A DNA stretch of 64,000 nt from an uncultured Candidatus Saccharibacteria bacterium (GCA_964530725.1 CAZGYV010000001.1:15829-79828), one strand, 5' to 3'. Positions 3,900-10,971 are shown, numbered from the stretch's first letter. Numbers and translations are program-made. Notes: generated from the letters alone by a model not told the origin.

Positions 3900-3922
3900 A
3901 TGGTGAACGTGGTTGAATCGAA
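3900..3922 (-). other. degenerate tRNA 3'-end-like remnant (candidate left attachment site)
   Basis: ATGGTGAACGTGGTTGAATCGAA compared with the tRNA-Glu 3' end ATGGTGATCCCACGGGGAATCGAA (10930-10953). The shared parts are ATGGTGA (ACCA end) and GAATCGAA (T-loop). The stems do not match and there is no cloverleaf. Confidence 0.3.
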
Positions 3923-4081
3923 TTGGAACGATATCCTTATGGAGTTCAGGCGACTCCATCACCTTATCAGGGGATTATCTCTGGCATAATCCATTCGCTA
4001 CGGTGATAGAACTAGTTTATGCTTGACACATAATGCTAATGCTTTTGTTATAGGCTTCTGAACCCTATAATACAGTGTAAT

Positions 4082-7000
4082 ATGTCTACATTACATAAAA
4101 GAGTATGGGGTAAAATCAAAAGCTACTTTGTAAGGGATGAAGCCGAGAAGCAAACACACCCCCTAAAGTCTCTCAGGCCAGCAAAGAATATTGATGGTCA
4201 CTCCGCTTATGTTGACGACATCGCTGAAGCGGTTGCAAATGATGACATTCTGAATATAGCCCTTACTGGCAGCTACGGTTCTGGTAAAAGTAGTATCCTC
4301 AGAGTCTTCAAGGATTCAACAAAGAAGAATAAAGTAGTCCAAATATCGTTCTCAAGCCTAGGGGCGAATATACAGGGTTATATCAATAAGTCTGAAGATG
4401 ATGAACACGAGAAGCTAAACAATCTCACAAACCTAATCCAAAAAGAGATAGTCAAACAGATACTCTTCAAGGAAAAGTACAAGAATATACCGTATTCAAA
4501 GTACAAGAGAGTCTCCAGCCCACGCTTGCCCCTAGTTTTTCTTAACGCATCATTAATATCTATAGTTCTGTTGGCCGTATCATTCGCAAACGGGTGGCTG
4601 GCTCAATTGTTTAAAGTTGCAGCCATTTCGGATTTCTGGTGGCAGGTAGCACTCTGTGCAGACCTATTCATTATCAGTACCTCGCTTATTGCTATCTTCG
4701 TGCTTACGCTATCTGGCAAAATACGGATAGATAAAATTGGTGCATCTTCAATATCATTATCACTCTCGGGAAGTGCAAGTTATTTTGACGAATACTTAGA
4801 TGAGATTATCTACTTCTTTGAAGCTGGACGATACAACGTGGTTATCTTTGAAGATATTGATAGGTTTGAGAGCCTTTATATTTTCGAGACCCTTCGACAG
4901 CTCAACACCATTCTGAATAACTCAGAGCAGATAAAACAACCCGTGACTTTCATCTACGCAATTAAAGACAGTATTTTCGCCAAAGAAGTTGTTGATGCTA
5001 AGAACGACCACAAAGAGCGAAGTGCAAACAGAACCAAGTTCTTTGACCTCATCATTCCTGTAGTTCCTTTCATTACTAATGTGAACTCACAAGACCACAT
5101 ACTTCAGGTTTTTGATAGCGAGTACCGAGACATCATCAGAGAGCCAGCCTCAGTAGTGGCAAAGCATATTACTGATATGCGTCTTGTGGTTAACATCTAT
5201 AACGAGTTTCTAATATTCAAGGATAAAGTTGTACTCCCCGACTCAGGCTTATCTCTGGATAAGTTATTTGCAGTTGTTGCTTACAAAAACTGGAATCTGG
5301 ATGAGTTTGAAAAAGTTAAAGATGGTGATAGTTCAATCGATAAGGTTATTGCTGCACACAGCAAATATGTTGACGATAGAATACGTACCATTAACTCTGA
5401 GATACGAAGCAAAGAAAGTGCCCTAAAGACTATCAATGCCATTGCTGAACGGTCACAGAGCTTAGGTAAGGTTCTTACCGACTATATAGCCGATGTATTG
5501 CGACAGGTGCAAGGTTCTGCTCAGTCCTATAGCCTTAACAGCACTTCTTATGACTTAGAAGATTTCACAACCGAAGATTTTTGGAGCGATATCATCAAAG
5601 GGGGTGAGACCAGTACTCTTATTGTCACCTATCGAGCATCAACTGGCTACACACAAAACCTTACACTGACGGCAGCCGACATCAGTAGTATTTGTAGCGA
5701 CAGCCTTGATAAAACCCAGTGGGATACAAAAGCAGCAGAAGCTATTGAAGACGAAATAGGAGTACTACGAGCCGAAGCTAATAAACTCCCATACCAAAGT
5801 ATCAAGGAACTCATTCAGGAATCACCAGAGTTTCTCGCTAAATTAAAGGAGCTCGATGGCGGTAAGGTTGTTGCTGACGAGGTAGGATGGCAACTCATTA
5901 AGGCTGGCTATATCGATACCGAATTCGTACACTACACCTCGCTATACTACAGCACCAGCATGAGCCTCAAAGCTCGTAGCTTCTTGCTAAATAATGTCCG
6001 ACTGAACAAACAGTCTTTGCATCACAAGTTTGAAAACGATGATGACATACAAGCACTTCTAGAAAAAATGGGCAGTACCTATCTTAATGATAAGAGCATG
6101 TACAACATCTCAATAGTTGATTACTTGCTCAGGAAGGATGACTCAAGAGTAGATAAGATAATAGCTAACTTGGCAGGCGGTGACGCTGACGACCTTCAAT
6201 TTATCAATGCATATGTGAAGGAGGGTTCTGAAGTAACCAAGTTTATCCAACAGCTTGCTGCACGATGGGATGGAATCTTTACGTATATTACAGGTGATAA
6301 CGAAATGGATGATAAAAAGAAGGGTCGTTTCATTAGCCTTGCATTAACTGCTGGTTCTGAGAGTATCAAGTATAAAACCAATCCATCCGTTAAAGGTTTT
6401 ATTGAGGCCAATAAAACAAACGTCCAGATACTTACAAACGATAACCAAGATAGCTCAGCCGTTGATGATGCTTGCCGATTGCTCATGCAGTTTGGAATTG
6501 AATTCGATACTCTTGATAATCTGAACGAGCAAGCAAAGGAAGCCGTAAAAGATTATGGTCTCTATACGGTCAATGAGCAGAACATGACATCTATCCTTGG
6601 AAGTCCAAGAGTGCCTTTGGATACAATCAAACGCACAAATGAATATGTCTACTCTCACTTGCTAGGGCATCTTGGTGAGTACGCAGACCTATTCCAGAAT
6701 CGAGCAGGCTCAGAATATGCACTTGCAGGCGAAGACGGATTTGAAGCAGTAATTGATGAGGTGTCAAAGATTTCGATGGATGACTTAGGATTAATTCTGG
6801 CTAATGCTGACCTGTCGAACTGTATCGTTCAAGATATTAATAAACTTGGTTCAGACACATGGCCTCTACTGGTTGAGAATGTCATTCTGTCCAACACTCT
6901 AAGTAACGTTCTGACATACTTTGAGCTGTCACATGCCGATGACAAGACAGTAATCAATGACCTGCTGGCTACATACCTTACTGAGGCTGAAACGGTTGTA

Positions 7001-7753
7001 CTTGATAAAGACTTTGCGGAGTATACTGCAGAAAATGTAAAGACCTTTGTTTTGGCCGTAGTAAATAGTTCAAAAATCGATGTGGAGACCACGGTTAATA
7101 TTGTCCATGATTGCTACACCGAAGACTACATTGACATATCAGATATTAAACCCCAAAACGGTAGCCTCTACGGTGCGTTGCTATCAAAGGACTGCATCGA
7201 AGATACGCAGGCGAACTTCGAGGCAATTAGAAACCTTTCTTGGGAAACGAAAAGCTCATACATAGCAAACTCCAAGAAGTTCTTAGAGTACATTGCAGCC
7301 CTCGCTCTCACTACGGACGAGCTAAACTCTATTGCTGAAGACGGCTCAATTCCTGATGCCGTTAACGAGTATATAGTCGATAACATCGTTGCTTATTCTG
7401 CTGAGTTATCTATCATGTCAGCTGCACACTTTGCCGAGTTTGCATTACGTAAGTCGAAGGTACTCAGTGCTGATTCACTTAAGGTTATTCTTGACGGAGC
7501 GGATAAGGAAACTAGCATTAAGCTCATAGGTCTAGCTTTAAATAATCTCGACTTTTCAAATATGCTCACACTCATGCCAGTTGTTGGTGGAGAGTATAAG
7601 AAGCTATCCGAGAAAAACAAACGACCATTATTTGAGAATACCGACTACAACTTAAACCTCATTGCCCGACTTAAAGAACTGGGCTTGGTGAGTAGTTATG
7701 AATTAAAAGATAATGAAACAAAAATAAAAGTAGTTATGAAGTCACGATGGTAG
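4082..7753 (+). CDS. KAP-family-like P-loop NTPase with transmembrane insert (1223 aa; YobI-like)
   Basis: Walker A LTGSYGSGKSS and Walker B-like VVIFEDIDRF are separated by two long hydrophobic helices (LVFLNASLISIVLLAVSFANGWLAQLF and WWQVALCADLFIISTSLIAIFVLTL). About 900 aa of unassigned, largely helical-looking sequence follows. Confidence 0.7.
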   Translation: MSTLHKRVWGKIKSYFVRDEAEKQTHPLKSLRPAKNIDGHSAYVDDIAEAVANDDILNIALTGSYGSGKSSILRVFKDSTKKNKVVQISFSSLGANIQGYINKSEDDEHEKLNNLTNLIQKEIVKQILFKEKYKNIPYSKYKRVSSPRLPLVFLNASLISIVLLAVSFANGWLAQLFKVAAISDFWWQVALCADLFIISTSLIAIFVLTLSGKIRIDKIGASSISLSLSGSASYFDEYLDEIIYFFEAGRYNVVIFEDIDRFESLYIFETLRQLNTILNNSEQIKQPVTFIYAIKDSIFAKEVVDAKNDHKERSANRTKFFDLIIPVVPFITNVNSQDHILQVFDSEYRDIIREPASVVAKHITDMRLVVNIYNEFLIFKDKVVLPDSGLSLDKLFAVVAYKNWNLDEFEKVKDGDSSIDKVIAAHSKYVDDRIRTINSEIRSKESALKTINAIAERSQSLGKVLTDYIADVLRQVQGSAQSYSLNSTSYDLEDFTTEDFWSDIIKGGETSTLIVTYRASTGYTQNLTLTAADISSICSDSLDKTQWDTKAAEAIEDEIGVLRAEANKLPYQSIKELIQESPEFLAKLKELDGGKVVADEVGWQLIKAGYIDTEFVHYTSLYYSTSMSLKARSFLLNNVRLNKQSLHHKFENDDDIQALLEKMGSTYLNDKSMYNISIVDYLLRKDDSRVDKIIANLAGGDADDLQFINAYVKEGSEVTKFIQQLAARWDGIFTYITGDNEMDDKKKGRFISLALTAGSESIKYKTNPSVKGFIEANKTNVQILTNDNQDSSAVDDACRLLMQFGIEFDTLDNLNEQAKEAVKDYGLYTVNEQNMTSILGSPRVPLDTIKRTNEYVYSHLLGHLGEYADLFQNRAGSEYALAGEDGFEAVIDEVSKISMDDLGLILANADLSNCIVQDINKLGSDTWPLLVENVILSNTLSNVLTYFELSHADDKTVINDLLATYLTEAETVVLDKDFAEYTAENVKTFVLAVVNSSKIDVETTVNIVHDCYTEDYIDISDIKPQNGSLYGALLSKDCIEDTQANFEAIRNLSWETKSSYIANSKKFLEYIAALALTTDELNSIAEDGSIPDAVNEYIVDNIVAYSAELSIMSAAHFAEFALRKSKVLSADSLKVILDGADKETSIKLIGLALNNLDFSNMLTLMPVVGGEYKKLSEKNKRPLFENTDYNLNLIARLKELGLVSSYELKDNETKIKVVMKSRW

Positions 7754-7919
7754 ACGTGGGGTGCGGTAGGGCTCGCCAAGCGTAGCGGCACAAGTCCTGT
7801 TTAGCGGGATACTACTTTATAGCATAAGCATGCCATAAGCAAAAAACGAAAACTCCATACCTCTGCATCTGTAAATTGGCGGATTTCTAGTAGTTTTTGG
7901 CTATGACTAACTATACGTA

Positions 7920-8414
7920 TTAGTAGCTTTTAGGAATAGCCTTACAAACTTCATCAAGAAGCTCATCAGGACTCATGTTGAGGTTTTGGTTTAAGTCTTT
8001 AAACTCCATAGTTATCATCACATAGACCATAGTCTGGAAGTTATTTGGGTGTTCTAGCTTCTCTGCAACTTGGGTTGTATATGCAGTTAGTCGTAATAGT
8101 TCGTCTGGCTTTTTGAATCCAGTTCTTGCAGAGACTGTCATAAGTCGCAACTCTTCCTTACTGGCATTAGGATTCTGGCGTTTATGCATGTCATACATCT
8201 TCTTTTGCGTCTTGGCTATTGAAACAGGACTACCTGCTTTTTTGAATAGTCCACCAATCCACTTGAAGATAGCAACAACCCAAAAGAACAGACCAAACCA
8301 TACAAGGATACCCGCAAACATTGAGGGTAGTAAATGGAATATACTAGGCAGCATTAAAGCTAACCCGATAAGGAACAGTTGATAAGGCTTAATACTTTTT
8401 CTTTGCTTCGACAT
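7920..8414 (-). CDS. hypothetical two-TM membrane protein (164 aa)
   Basis: Start MSKQRKSIKPYQ is preceded by an SD (ttAAGGAGaaaaacATG). Hydrophobic hairpin LFLIGLALMLPSIFHLL / FAGILVWFGLFFWVVAIF, followed by a soluble C-terminal domain. The 196-aa track ORF has an unsupported N-terminal extension. Confidence 0.55.
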   Translation of the reverse strand: MSKQRKSIKPYQLFLIGLALMLPSIFHLLPSMFAGILVWFGLFFWVVAIFKWIGGLFKKAGSPVSIAKTQKKMYDMHKRQNPNASKEELRLMTVSARTGFKKPDELLRLTAYTTQVAEKLEHPNNFQTMVYVMITMEFKDLNQNLNMSPDELLDEVCKAIPKSY

Positions 8415-8575
8415 GTTTTTCTCCTTAAAAATAAAAACGACACCACGCTTGGTGTCTAAACCAGTAACAGAGTTTTTAAGCCCGATTACTTCGCATGGTG
8501 CCGTTTTCAAGGCTTAAAACCACGCAAAATTACTTGCGGTACTCTATAACTGGTTTAGACTATTTCATTATATAA
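8415..8575 (-). promoter_or_regulatory. structured 5' leader: long closing stem, two internal hairpins, then a terminator-like hairpin abutting the SD
   Basis: Arms 8454-8473 and 8541-8560 pair 18/20. Inner stems are 8474-8482/8511-8519 (9 bp) and 8523-8527/8534-8538 (5 bp). Hairpin GACACCA-cgct-TGGTGTC (8439-8456) is followed on the minus strand by GTTTTTATTTTT and then AAGGAG-ATG. Confidence 0.45.
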
Positions 8576-8856
8576 CAAAAACACCCCCATGTTGCTCAAA
8601 TCACCCCTGAGCCCAAACGATATTTTGCGTTTAAAATCAAAAGTTGATGTTATGCCCATCTCGTAGATAAAAGTGCGTGTTTTGACGGTTTATTTACAGT
8701 ATGTTGGTCGATTATTTTGCTTCCAAAATTAAAAGATGAGCATAAGTCCACCTCACAAATATGAGCGAAAAAAATGAAGCAAGTTCAGCGGTATTTCCGA
8801 CCACTATGGAGTTTTTGGTTATCCACAGACACTTGTCAAAATAAACATAAAAGGTA

Positions 8857-8885
8857 TTGACTTTTTGGGCAAAGTTTGATATAAT
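8857..8885 (+). promoter_or_regulatory. near-consensus sigma70-type promoter
   Basis: TTGACT (8857-8862), a 17-nt spacer, then TATAAT (8880-8885). Confidence 0.6.
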
Positions 8886-8891
8886 ACCAAC

Positions 8892-9128
8892 AGTTAATGA
8901 CGTGGTACACATGTTAAATCTCTTAGCTAAATCATACACAGAACCGACACGGCGTGGTGTTTAGCTAGTTATTTGATAGTCCTATAGTCACTACTCTTGT
9001 TGGAAGCAATAAAGAGAGAGCATCAGAGTTTCGCCTTCGTGAAAATATGCCCATTCTCCTACGTTGTCCTACTAAATAATTAGTAAGATAACAGGCTGAT
9101 TTAGTACGCCCTCGGACGGGTGTTTTTT
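8892..9128 (+). ncRNA. candidate ~235-nt non-coding transcript (or leader of the recombinase operon)
   Basis: Runs from the consensus promoter at 8857-8885 to a weak terminator: CGCCC-tcggac-GGGTG plus TTTTTT (9107-9128). Only 6-17-codon ORFs lie inside. It contains several hairpins, e.g. CTACTAAataaTTAGTAAG. Confidence 0.35.
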
Positions 9129-9154
9129 ATATCTGCCAAAGAATAAGGGTTAAC

Positions 9155-9376
9155 ATGCCACGACAAAGAACATGGAGCGGTCAGATGCTCACAATATCAG
9201 ATAAACCTATCATTACCACAGGAGAAGCTCGCAAGATACTAGGCAAGGGTTACGAAGAGCTTTCAGATGAACACCTAATGGGAGTAATTGTTTCACTTTC
9301 TAAGATAGCAGACTATTTCCTGACTAGGATTAGTGTTCCAGAAAACTATAAGGTATGTGGTAAAATGGGGATATGA
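9155..9376 (+). CDS. small protein (73 aa), possible HTH/recombination directionality factor
   Basis: ATGA-coupled to the recombinase start. The segment ITTGEARKILGKGYEELSD looks like a helix-turn-helix. I recognise no family. Confidence 0.4.
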   Translation: MPRQRTWSGQMLTISDKPIITTGEARKILGKGYEELSDEHLMGVIVSLSKIADYFLTRISVPENYKVCGKMGI

Positions 9377-10971
9377 ATACGATGGATAAAAAAGAGCCAA
9401 TCAAAGTTTATGGTTATAAGCGTGTGTCTACTGAGGAGCAAGTTGATGGGATGTCTTTACATACTCAAGAGCTTGCAATTCAAGCCTACGCAGAGCAGCA
9501 CAATCTTGAGGTGGTGCATATCTTTCATGACGATGGAATATCCGCCAAAACAGCCAAGCGCCCGCAACTTCAAGAGATGCTCGCAAAACTCACAGCCAAA
9601 GATAACGAGGTGCGTGGTGTAGTTGTTTACAATCTCAGTCGTATCTCTCGTGATTTAGAGTCATACAGTCGTGATATAGGCTATCATCTTTCGGCAAAAG
9701 GCGTTCGTCTGTACTCTACAGTTGAAAACATTGACGATACACCAGAGGGTCGTTTGATGCGTAATATTGCACTCTCTATCCACCAGTACGATAACGATAC
9801 AAAAAGTCGAACAGTTAAAGACAATATGAAACAAGTTGCTCTTGAGGGTTGGTGGCAAGGCAATATCCCCTACGGATATAGCCGTGTTAAAGTACCGATT
9901 GGCATTAAGGACAAAGACGGTAAAACTAAGGAGCGTCTCACTCTCGAACCTGATAGCAATAACGACTTGAGCGACAAGATGCGTATGATGCTAGAGCGGT
10001 TCAGTGAGGGTGATTTGAAACAGTCCGAGCTTACTGATTATGCTGAGAGTATCGGCCTATACAGCCCAAAGGGTGAACGTTTTGCACCTCAGTCAATGAA
10101 TAACATTCTAAGAAATATTACCTATGCGGGCTTTGTGTGTAATAAGATGACAGACTTTGAACCTGTAAAGGCTAAACACGTAGGTCTTATCTCGCTTGAG
10201 ACATATTTACGTAATCAGGCTGTTCTTGATGGTCGTAAGCCTGATGAGGCGATGCCTCGCTTTACTGCTAGCTACCCTCTCAAGCACTCTCTGTTATGTA
10301 TTAACTGTCATAAACCCTTAACAGGTAGTGCACCTACTGGAGGTTCTGGTAAGAGCTCACCTCGCTATCACTGCACAAGATGTACGGGTACTGGCTCAAA
10401 AGGTCTTGATAGAACGAATGAGCTATTTGAAGCATTCTTAAACGATGTTACGCCTACAGATAAGATGATTAAGCTCTTTGATGTGATTGTACGCCGTATC
10501 GCCAAAGACAAGCTCTCAAACGTGAATAAGGCTATCAGCGATGTTAGAGACGATATGACCAAGATAGACACTGATATGCAGAAAGCACTTCAGTCTATGC
10601 TCGATGGCGATATCAGTAAGCAAGAGAAAGAAGACTACCAGTCGTCATTACGTATTAAGCGACTCAACCTAGAGGACGAACTTAATAAGCTACGAGACAT
10701 ACAGAGCCTCAATGAGTCTACTATTACCTATGTTTGTAACTTTATGGACGCTCCTGCTCGTATGTGGCAAGATGCAGACGCAGAGACAAAAGTCATCTTC
10801 CAACAGATGGTTACAGAGAACGGTATTGTATTCGACCTCAAGAACGAAAAGTTTGGAACGGACGGTTTGAGTATGTTTTACAGATTGAAAGACAACAAAA
10901 AAGACCCATCAAAGGCTGATGAGTCCCTTATGGTGATCCCACGGGGAATCGAACCCCGGTTACCAGGATGA
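9373..10971 (+). CDS. large serine recombinase (532 aa)
   Basis: Resolvase-type N-terminal domain (VYGYKRVSTEEQ with catalytic Ser; GISAKT..RPQLQEML; VVVYNLSRISRD). Recombinase domain (WQGNIPYGY). Zn-ribbon CINCH...YHCTRC. Coiled-coil C-terminal region. The last 41 nt overlap tRNA-Glu in antisense. Confidence 0.9.
   Translation: MNTMDKKEPIKVYGYKRVSTEEQVDGMSLHTQELAIQAYAEQHNLEVVHIFHDDGISAKTAKRPQLQEMLAKLTAKDNEVRGVVVYNLSRISRDLESYSRDIGYHLSAKGVRLYSTVENIDDTPEGRLMRNIALSIHQYDNDTKSRTVKDNMKQVALEGWWQGNIPYGYSRVKVPIGIKDKDGKTKERLTLEPDSNNDLSDKMRMMLERFSEGDLKQSELTDYAESIGLYSPKGERFAPQSMNNILRNITYAGFVCNKMTDFEPVKAKHVGLISLETYLRNQAVLDGRKPDEAMPRFTASYPLKHSLLCINCHKPLTGSAPTGGSGKSSPRYHCTRCTGTGSKGLDRTNELFEAFLNDVTPTDKMIKLFDVIVRRIAKDKLSNVNKAISDVRDDMTKIDTDMQKALQSMLDGDISKQEKEDYQSSLRIKRLNLEDELNKLRDIQSLNESTITYVCNFMDAPARMWQDADAETKVIFQQMVTENGIVFDLKNEKFGTDGLSMFYRLKDNKKDPSKADESLMVIPRGIEPRLPG

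Follow-up and report, generated by a model that had tools for sequence, protein, structure and literature searches.

We begin with the minus-strand element at 8560-8427 of the 64-kb window (the whole stretch of DNA that was analysed), which is probably a 5' mRNA leader acting as a transcription attenuator, with read-through when its apical loop is free and termination when that loop is withheld. It consists of a closing helix (P1), two inner hairpins (P2 and P3) and an intrinsic terminator, followed by a Shine-Dalgarno (SD) sequence and the ATG at 8414 (Table 1). The terminator hairpin and a long-range helix between the apical loop of P3 and the tail of the leader (the loop-tail or antiterminator helix) use the same nucleotides, so that they cannot coexist; they form a mutually exclusive terminator/antiterminator pair in which the second helix, too, is conserved. 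By covariation among homologues, both structures are shown to be under selection. The element belongs to a family of about 60 distinct homologous leaders, nearly all of them from Saccharibacteria or other Patescibacteria, which is previously undescribed as far as Rfam and the literature searched can tell.

Table 1. Features of the leader and its gene in the window
Feature	Position	Strand	Basis or remark
-10 hexamer TATAAT	8567-8572	-	ends 6 nt before G8560; family-wide conservation
Putative transcription start, G of GUCU, first P1 nucleotide	8560	-	fixed -10 spacing only
P1 5' strand GUCUAAACCAGUUAUAGAGU	8541-8560	-	inverted-repeat arm, 20 nt, 90% complementary to 8454-8473
P2 hairpin CGCAA-GUAAUU-UUGCG, 5 bp	8523-8538	-	seen in sequence; limited to the window subfamily
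P3 5' strand UUUUAAGCC	8511-8519	-	9-bp stem with 8474-8482, 28-nt loop
Antiterminator 5' strand UGAAAACGGCACCAUGC, in P3 apical loop	8493-8509	-	core CGGCACC 8503-8497; 17 contiguous bp with 8448-8432
P3 3' strand GGCUUAAAA	8474-8482	-	pairs with 8511-8519; covariation
P1 3' strand ACUCUGUUACUGGUUUAGAC	8454-8473	-	last 3 nt GAC double as start of terminator stem
Intrinsic terminator hairpin GACACCA-AGCG-UGGUGUC	8439-8456	-	terminator scan; covariation
Antiterminator 3' strand GCGUGGUGUCGUUUUUA	8432-8448	-	terminator loop, 3' strand, next G and U-tract
U-tract UUUUUAUUUUU	8427-8437	-	sequence; terminator scan
Shine-Dalgarno AAGGAG	8421-8426	-	sequence; kept in homologous leaders
Regulated gene, 164-aa protein with N-terminal two-TM hairpin	7920-8414	-	no Pfam, PHROG or PADLOC family

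The first-pass annotation had drawn the closing helix with 18 of 20 pairs, two hairpins within it, a 7-bp hairpin sharing GAC with it, a T-run and AAGGAG before the ATG. A repeat finder confirms the closing helix where it was drawn (8560-8541 with 8473-8454; 18 Watson-Crick pairs, one G.U and one U.U), the terminator scan calls the 7-bp hairpin followed by GUUUUUAUUUUU, and the SD and start codon are present as claimed. With 7 bp (four of them GC), a 4-nt loop and GUUUUUAUUUUU, the hairpin lies within the limits for an intrinsic terminator (GC-rich stem of 5-10 bp, loop of 3-8 nt, U-tract). The 176-nt stretch has a minimum free energy (MFE) of -53.3 kcal/mol, against -35.4 +/- 3.5 for 200 dinucleotide shuffles; since the z-score is -5.07 and none of the 200 shuffles is as good, the fold is not due to chance. 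Both inner hairpins can be formed as drawn. The unconstrained MFE structure, however, pairs UUUGCGUGGU with ACCAUGCGAA in place of the two, so that the inner structure is ambiguous from the window sequence alone. Comparison speaks for the 9-bp stem, whose inner 7 bp are 100% paired, with four covarying pairs, in 24 leaders of the three subfamilies built like the window copy (slid controls, 12-54%), and weakly for the 5-bp stem, where a single A-U to U-A swap occurs, in loci L075 and L133. There is no second copy of the leader within the window.

Of 43 family members, 36 have a TATAAT-like hexamer that ends exactly 6 nt upstream of GTCT, and in four more the distance is 7 nt; this hexamer was absent from the pattern used for the genome scan. 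From the constant distance between the -10 box and GUCU, P1 appears to begin at +1. A TGn precedes the hexamer in 20 of the 43. The -10 box had been annotated earlier as an extended one, TGtTATATA at 8563-8571; a box is indeed present just upstream of the leader, but the conserved hexamer is TATAAT at 8572-8567, for which the TG of the window is off the canonical spacing. Some 90 nt upstream of the promoter (8585-8672, minus strand) are conserved along with it in loci L001, L002, L009 and L011. This stretch opens with ATGGGTATAACATC, where a 34-aa ORF (8555-8659) begins; as a conserved gene this ORF was rejected, because the leader's own -10 box falls within it and neither its frame nor its stop is conserved. 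Attenuation by a leader peptide was rejected as well: P1 lies at +1 without an SD, and the short AUG frame AUGCGAAGUAAUCGGGCUUAA is missing from other subfamilies.

The homologues were collected in several ways. Close relatives of the 164-aa protein form only 16 clusters, all from Saccharibacteria, and their upstream regions carry the same element in three diverged versions, with compensating substitutions in P1, P3 and the terminator. A search with the few letters that stay constant, GTCTRRA N{85,115} AGACAMC N{5,18} TGTCRYTTT, gave 118 matches from GTDB representative genomes and another 9 from viral contigs. P1 complementarity among these matches is bimodal, with 14-19 of 19 pairs in one group and 5-12 of 19, the chance matches, in the other; the 51 matches of the first group reduce to 42 distinct sequences. 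The family as counted here comprises 44 distinct aligned leaders, 5 with a bulged P1 from Saccharibacteria, and 16 from metagenomes. Because the patterns fix GUCURRA, AGACAMC and UGUC and the matches were filtered on P1 pairing, the conservation of these letters and part of the P1 statistic are biased by selection of the members; many members are closely related, so that the counts run higher than the independent events behind them. Nearly all true members bear the label Saccharibacteria or Saccharimonadales, with a separate subtype in Parcubacteria/Patescibacteria MAGs and one IMG/VR contig. Two carry a Proteobacteria label (one on a short, low-coverage contig) and are probably mis-binned.

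Common to the family are the -10 box 6 nt before GUCU, a covarying P1 of 15-20 bp, an A-run followed by CGGCACC, and GACACC/GGUGUC with the U-tract. What lies between varies: other subfamilies present the motif on a longer single arm without P2, or have a different hairpin at the P2 position. The aptamer-like junction that had been seen in the window is thus not the conserved core. The impression that it matches no known riboswitch class is borne out by Rfam 15, for which only two tRNAs reach the gathering threshold in the whole window. At E<=10, region 8300-8800 gives sub-threshold chance matches only, among them freshwater-2, which scores 16.7 bits where 49.9 are required and covers the terminator hairpin and SD only; the 17 loci with family members scanned likewise gave tRNA and RNase P matches and none at the leader. 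A literature search, most subscription journals aside, found no cis-regulatory RNA described for Saccharibacteria, Patescibacteria or the CPR.

The key feature, which was absent from the earlier reading, is the long-range antiterminator helix. All members have, in the apical region, A's followed by a motif [CU]G[GA]CA[ACU]C; in nearly every one, 14-20 contiguous bp can form between this motif region and the terminator loop, the terminator's 3' strand, the next nucleotide and the U-tract. The longest loop-tail run has a median of 15, compared with 7 when the interiors are shuffled; in the window the helix joins 8509-8493 with 8448-8432 over 17 bp. Given a plain MAFFT alignment of the 44 leaders, RNAalifold picks this helix unprompted, with 12 consensus pairs of which 7 show compensatory double changes. 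When all 16 pairs are scored over the 44 leaders, 94.8% are paired and 8 pairs show double changes (slid controls, 39-46%), and the covariation score was reached by no shuffle. The loop-tail helix was part of neither the search patterns nor the filter.

This covariation extends to positions that the terminator leaves unpaired, namely its loop and the nucleotide after GUC. The latter and the first base of the motif form C-G in 41 leaders and U-A in 3 (from three subfamilies), with no exception; in the window subfamily, the terminator loop and the bases after the motif change together as GCGU/AUGC, GCGU/ACGC, ACGU/ACGU and GUAU/AUGC. For the other two helices, counts come from the same 44 leaders: the outer 11 bp of P1 are 98% paired, with double changes at 6 pairs, and the terminator stem is 94% paired, a C-G pair being replaced by A-U in 16 with perfect tracking (28/16). 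Because G.U pairs are frequent and strand-specific, at 35/44 for one antiterminator position and 19/44 in P1, the folded molecule is the sense-strand RNA. The many compensatory changes in homologous upstream regions, together with these G.U pairs, uphold the first-pass view of an RNA-level cis-regulatory leader with its own promoter, terminator and SD.

A further scan of metagenomes required the -10 box, the start of P1, the motif and YAGAC, leaving the terminator free. It gave 16 true members with a terminator in 16/16, and no alternative expression platform was seen among them. One match on a human-gut contig (L159, 209-363) fits the -10 box, P1 and motif with 15 of 19 P1 pairs, has a GC-rich interior and no terminator, and is probably due to chance. 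In another locus (L156, 2808-2935), GGUGCC replaces GGUGUC in the 3' strand of the terminator, which turns a G.U pair of the antiterminator into G-C and leaves an A.C mismatch in the terminator; from its sequence, this copy looks shifted towards read-through. A candidate anti-antiterminator pairing, UUGCGUGG with CCAYGYR, can be drawn in the window subfamily and has an analogue, CCGGAU/AUCCGG, in the Parcubacteria-type leaders. As a general element it was rejected and left out of the model, no equivalent being found in the L001-type leaders.

According to the model, transcription would start at or beside G8560. Covariation shows that the RNA forms the long P1, from what would be its extreme 5' end, and the P3 stem, with the A-rich stretch and CGGCACC in an apical loop of about 28 nt. 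Once the polymerase is at 8456-8427, two structures would compete for the 3' segment GGUGUCG. In one state, the GACACCA/UGGUGUC hairpin and the U's would act as terminator, releasing an RNA of about 130 nt and leaving the gene untranscribed. In the other, the 17-bp loop-tail helix, pseudoknotted with P1, would block the hairpin and let the polymerase enter the 164-aa gene. Because the segment of this helix within the terminator loop emerges before the 3' strand, it could serve the apical loop as a toehold. The first three nucleotides of the terminator, GAC, are also the last three of P1, where they pair with the 5'-terminal GUC; every invariant letter has two partners in this scheme, and the dual pairing alone can explain the conservation.

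The energies bear on how the choice would be made. On average, the antiterminator duplex has -24.9 kcal/mol and the terminator hairpin -9.4. For the window, the best nested fold of the terminator state has -49.1 kcal/mol; the antiterminator state adds -28.8 for P1 and P2 to -26.3 for the duplex before pseudoknot penalties, and with these penalties uncounted the two states are estimated to be about the same. Since they are roughly balanced, the decision must be kinetic, we infer; the same follows from an antiterminator far stabler than the hairpin, as the terminator would be rare at equilibrium. The predicted pseudoknot of P1 with the loop-tail helix is an unusual one, in which 17 bp are made from a hairpin loop closed by a 9-bp stem, and its fit is argued on paper.

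The next question is what is placed behind such a leader. A co-directional ORF follows essentially all copies, often with an SD 6-30 nt past the U-tract. The first-pass annotation had tied the leader to the island's small membrane protein; the leader is not specific to it, as many unrelated genes have one in front of them. The products include the 164-aa family, other small TM proteins (DUF4190, DUF6804, a 168-aa family), small Q-rich tail-anchored proteins, secreted proteins with Fib_succ_major/Lcl_C domains and a secreted trypsin-like protease; among the genes behind Parcubacteria-type leaders are two DNA methylases. A strongly hydrophobic segment, read as a signal peptide or TM segment, occurs within the first 90 residues in 28/33 of the products (85%), compared with 26% of other ORFs in the same loci (Fisher p = 8e-11, with homologous genes counted repeatedly and the effective sample therefore smaller). 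These sequences suggest a regulon-type leader that serves cell-envelope genes of Patescibacteria, one copy of which has been adopted by the defence island of the window.

This island, seen in the GC profile, the tRNA scan and the Pfam matches, is a low-GC segment of 7 kb (about 3902-10930) that has inserted at the CCA end of tRNA-Glu(ctc). Within it are a YobI/Tmn-type NTPase (PADLOC Tmn, 1e-63), the leader with the 164-aa protein, a xis-like ORF and a large serine integrase whose last codons overlap the tRNA-Glu gene on the opposite strand. Comparison with near-identical islands places the junctions after ...CACCA, at the tRNA-Glu CCA end (about 10931) and at about 3902. The leader itself was considered as the att site of the island and rejected, since it lies inside the island with the junctions 2.4 kb and more away. 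Related islands keep the leader and membrane-protein module and swap the cargo (MmeI restriction-modification, AriAB/OLD-like ATPase-Toprim, LmuB-like), sometimes along with the integrase.

Several other arrangements were seen in these islands. On the plus strand of the window there is a strong sigma-70-type promoter at 8857-8885 (TTGACT-17-TATAAT with TG, 11/12), and a terminator-like hairpin with a T-run at 9106-9123 stands just before the xis-like ATG at 9155. In the interval 8857-9154 (+), the excision/integration operon may have a leader or attenuator of its own, about 230 nt long (fold z = -2.2). In L011, the gene after the membrane protein (6772-7392) has a precomputed Pfam Phage_P4_cII match; L001 and L002 have genes for 221 and 229 aa without annotation at that position. 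The match may point to a connection with P4-like satellites. Locus L004 (5930-5990 and 10540-10590) and locus L005 carry a truncated leader, CTAGAC and the terminator only, joined to 25 nt copied from the 3' end of tRNA-Met; at the opposite end of the island stands ...GCGTTT-CTA-CCACGC, which is found downstream of the tRNA. GTTCAAnCCTnnnTGnTG..CTA is common to the tRNA-Met 3' end and the P3-3'/P1-3' region of L001-type leaders. A retron, guide RNA or bridge RNA was rejected, there being no reverse transcriptase, IscB/TnpB or IS110 gene nearby and many copies lacking a detectable integrase homologue in their vicinity. An integron attC-like site was rejected too: the resemblance to an R-box is imperfect, and the presence of a promoter, a U-tract and strand-specific G.U pairs suggests an RNA instead.

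We turn our attention to the trigger that would withhold or free the apical loop. A protein or other macromolecule bound to the conserved small apical hairpin C-G/GCAC/C-G is a possible trigger, proposed tentatively, and a trans-acting macromolecule is given a slight preference over a small-molecule ligand. Two or three copies of the leader are present in some genomes. In L044, L056 and L123 (the three copies of CAYNHE01), and in L049 and L124 (CAURNU01), the antiterminator core of about 10 nt is the same within the genome while P1 and the interior differ, an arrangement that fits a shared trans factor or cross-talk between leaders.

A small ligand as the trigger is doubtful. The leader would then be a riboswitch for a metabolite or second messenger, an unlikely reading in which the ligand sits at the P1/P3 junction or the pseudoknot interface and stabilises either the loop-tail helix (an ON switch, as in ZTP) or the P3-loop fold (an OFF switch). 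Such a switch would account for the transcriptional-riboswitch layout, the near iso-energetic states and the several copies per genome, three for example in CAYNHE01. The envelope-protein theme is fairly coherent, as it is for c-di-GMP riboswitches, and minor-groove triples, known from ligand-binding pseudoknots, could form with the A-rich linker past the antiterminator strand. The conservation, however, lends it little support: the invariant letters are in the P1 base, antiterminator and terminator, no invariant unpaired nucleotides were found by plain sequence alignment, and while P1, P3 and the apical loop are general, the inner architecture varies by subfamily, with P2 present or absent and a single long arm or a three-way junction. 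P1, at 15-20 bp, far exceeds ligand-gated P1 helices. Riboswitch classes usually have translational versions as well, whereas a single expression platform was found here (16/16), and the downstream genes are not the transporters or enzymes of one pathway but diverse and mostly without assigned function.

It is also rather improbable, though worth weighing, that there is no signal at all and that the trigger is replaced by a fixed partition or a physical parameter. A constitutive tuner or stabiliser, which we hold to be quite unlikely, would give a fixed split into abundant short RNA and little mRNA for potentially toxic membrane proteins, and P1 with the loop-tail pseudoknot at the extreme 5' end would also shield the mRNA from decay. 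It is in keeping with this that P1 starts at +1, that the products are mostly membrane or secreted proteins, that no sensor element is identifiable, and that copies are present in mobile islands, where autonomous control independent of the host would be useful. Yet two competing structures, kept up with three-way covariation across divergent lineages, cost more than a weak promoter or a leaky terminator would, and the drift of L156 towards the antiterminator suggests that the ratio is under selection rather than fixed.

An RNA in trans as the trigger is improbable. The corresponding reading, in which the terminated RNA of about 130 nt is itself the product and acts on sister leaders (compare P4 CI and toxI-terminator-toxN), has little likelihood, in spite of the leader's own promoter and terminator. 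The identical antiterminator cores of one genome's paralogous leaders would allow GGUGUCG of one RNA to titrate CGGCACC of another, the window copy is in an integrative island, and in L011 a P4 cII-like gene lies two genes downstream. Against this, the co-directional ORF is close behind essentially every copy, a repeat search of the region gave none of the tandem repeats that mark toxI, none of the downstream proteins is a ribonuclease, and pairing in cis accounts for all the covariation.

A DNA-level site (an att- or attC-like recombination site, an operator or a single-strand origin, in which the inverted repeat would work as DNA) is very improbable and largely refuted; the first-pass annotation had named a protein-binding or recombination site as its alternative. 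In favour of such a site, the tRNA-Met 3' fragment of L004/L005 is fused exactly between CTA and GAC of the leader, the P1 base GTCTAGAC is palindromic and the island has a serine integrase. Against it, the island has its att junctions elsewhere, at the CCA end of tRNA-Glu and close to 3902, the strand-specific G.U pairs would be A.C mismatches on the other strand, the -10 box and U-tract are fixed, as is the orientation towards the gene that follows, many copies have no detectable integrase homologue nearby, and binding to duplex DNA would leave covarying 20-bp arms 67-100 nt apart unexplained.

The transcription attenuator would matter for the organisms that carry it. Patescibacteria are episymbionts with tiny genomes, and gene regulation in the CPR appears to be largely unexplored; contact with the host bacterium is likely to run through surface and secreted proteins, and a leader family at envelope genes, with several copies per genome and a clear terminator/antiterminator layout, would give a first handle on the regulation of this interface. 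The leader is also a conserved backbone part of small defence islands that integrate at tRNA genes, and it may bear on the control of their cargo. More speculatively, and against the odds, it could represent a sensor class of a new kind, either a riboswitch or an RNA to which a dedicated signalling factor binds, and switch on a cell-envelope regulon across Saccharibacteria and other Patescibacteria. If so, the sensor might answer a host-derived or second-messenger signal, the regulon would consist of adhesin-like secreted and small membrane proteins, and mobile defence islands would have captured the sensor leader to control their own membrane protein.

It remains to compare the family with known systems. 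The type III toxin-antitoxin arrangement (toxI-terminator-toxN) has the same order of promoter, structured RNA, terminator and protein gene; the tandem RNA repeats of that class (about 34-36 nt) have no counterpart here, there being no direct repeats in the region, the downstream protein of the window has no family match, and the family's products are membrane or secreted proteins, not endoribonucleases. In the immunity system of P4 (CI RNA, seqA/seqC), complementarity within a leader likewise controls premature termination in a mobile element, with an abundant short terminated RNA; there, however, a processed 69-nt RNA acts in trans and the segments are in another order, whereas here pairing in cis is enough and most copies are not known to lie in satellites. 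The T-box shares the long structured leader, the choice between terminator and antiterminator and the many copies per genome. Unlike it, the present family, at about 130 nt, is much shorter and has no specifier loop, T-box sequence or tRNA-binding bulge; no Rfam T-box match was found in the window or the 17 loci, and the downstream genes are not aminoacyl-tRNA related.

The PyrR-pyr and TRAP-trp leaders of Bacillus also set an intrinsic terminator against a mutually exclusive, stabler antiterminator, with several copies per genome, and the small conserved hairpin could, by analogy, be held by a factor so as to favour termination. What differs is that the antiterminator of this family takes the terminator loop, 3' strand and U-tract, and not the 5' strand, as its partner and is pseudoknotted with a 20-bp P1 from +1, and that there is no sequence similarity and no known binding protein or motif. 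ZTP (pfl) and other pseudoknot ON switches share with the family a pseudoknot between a distal loop and a 3' segment that competes with an intrinsic terminator. In ZTP, the 3' strand of the pseudoknot overlaps the 5' half of the terminator and the pocket nucleotides are invariant; in the present family the overlap is with the terminator loop and 3' half, the helix has 14-20 bp, no conserved pocket is evident and there is no Rfam match. Judged by its layout, then, the leader family is a member of none of these classes and works like the classical attenuators and the pseudoknot ON-riboswitches, and what is unusual in its mechanism is a loop-to-tail pseudoknot antiterminator that would invade the terminator through its loop and 3' half.
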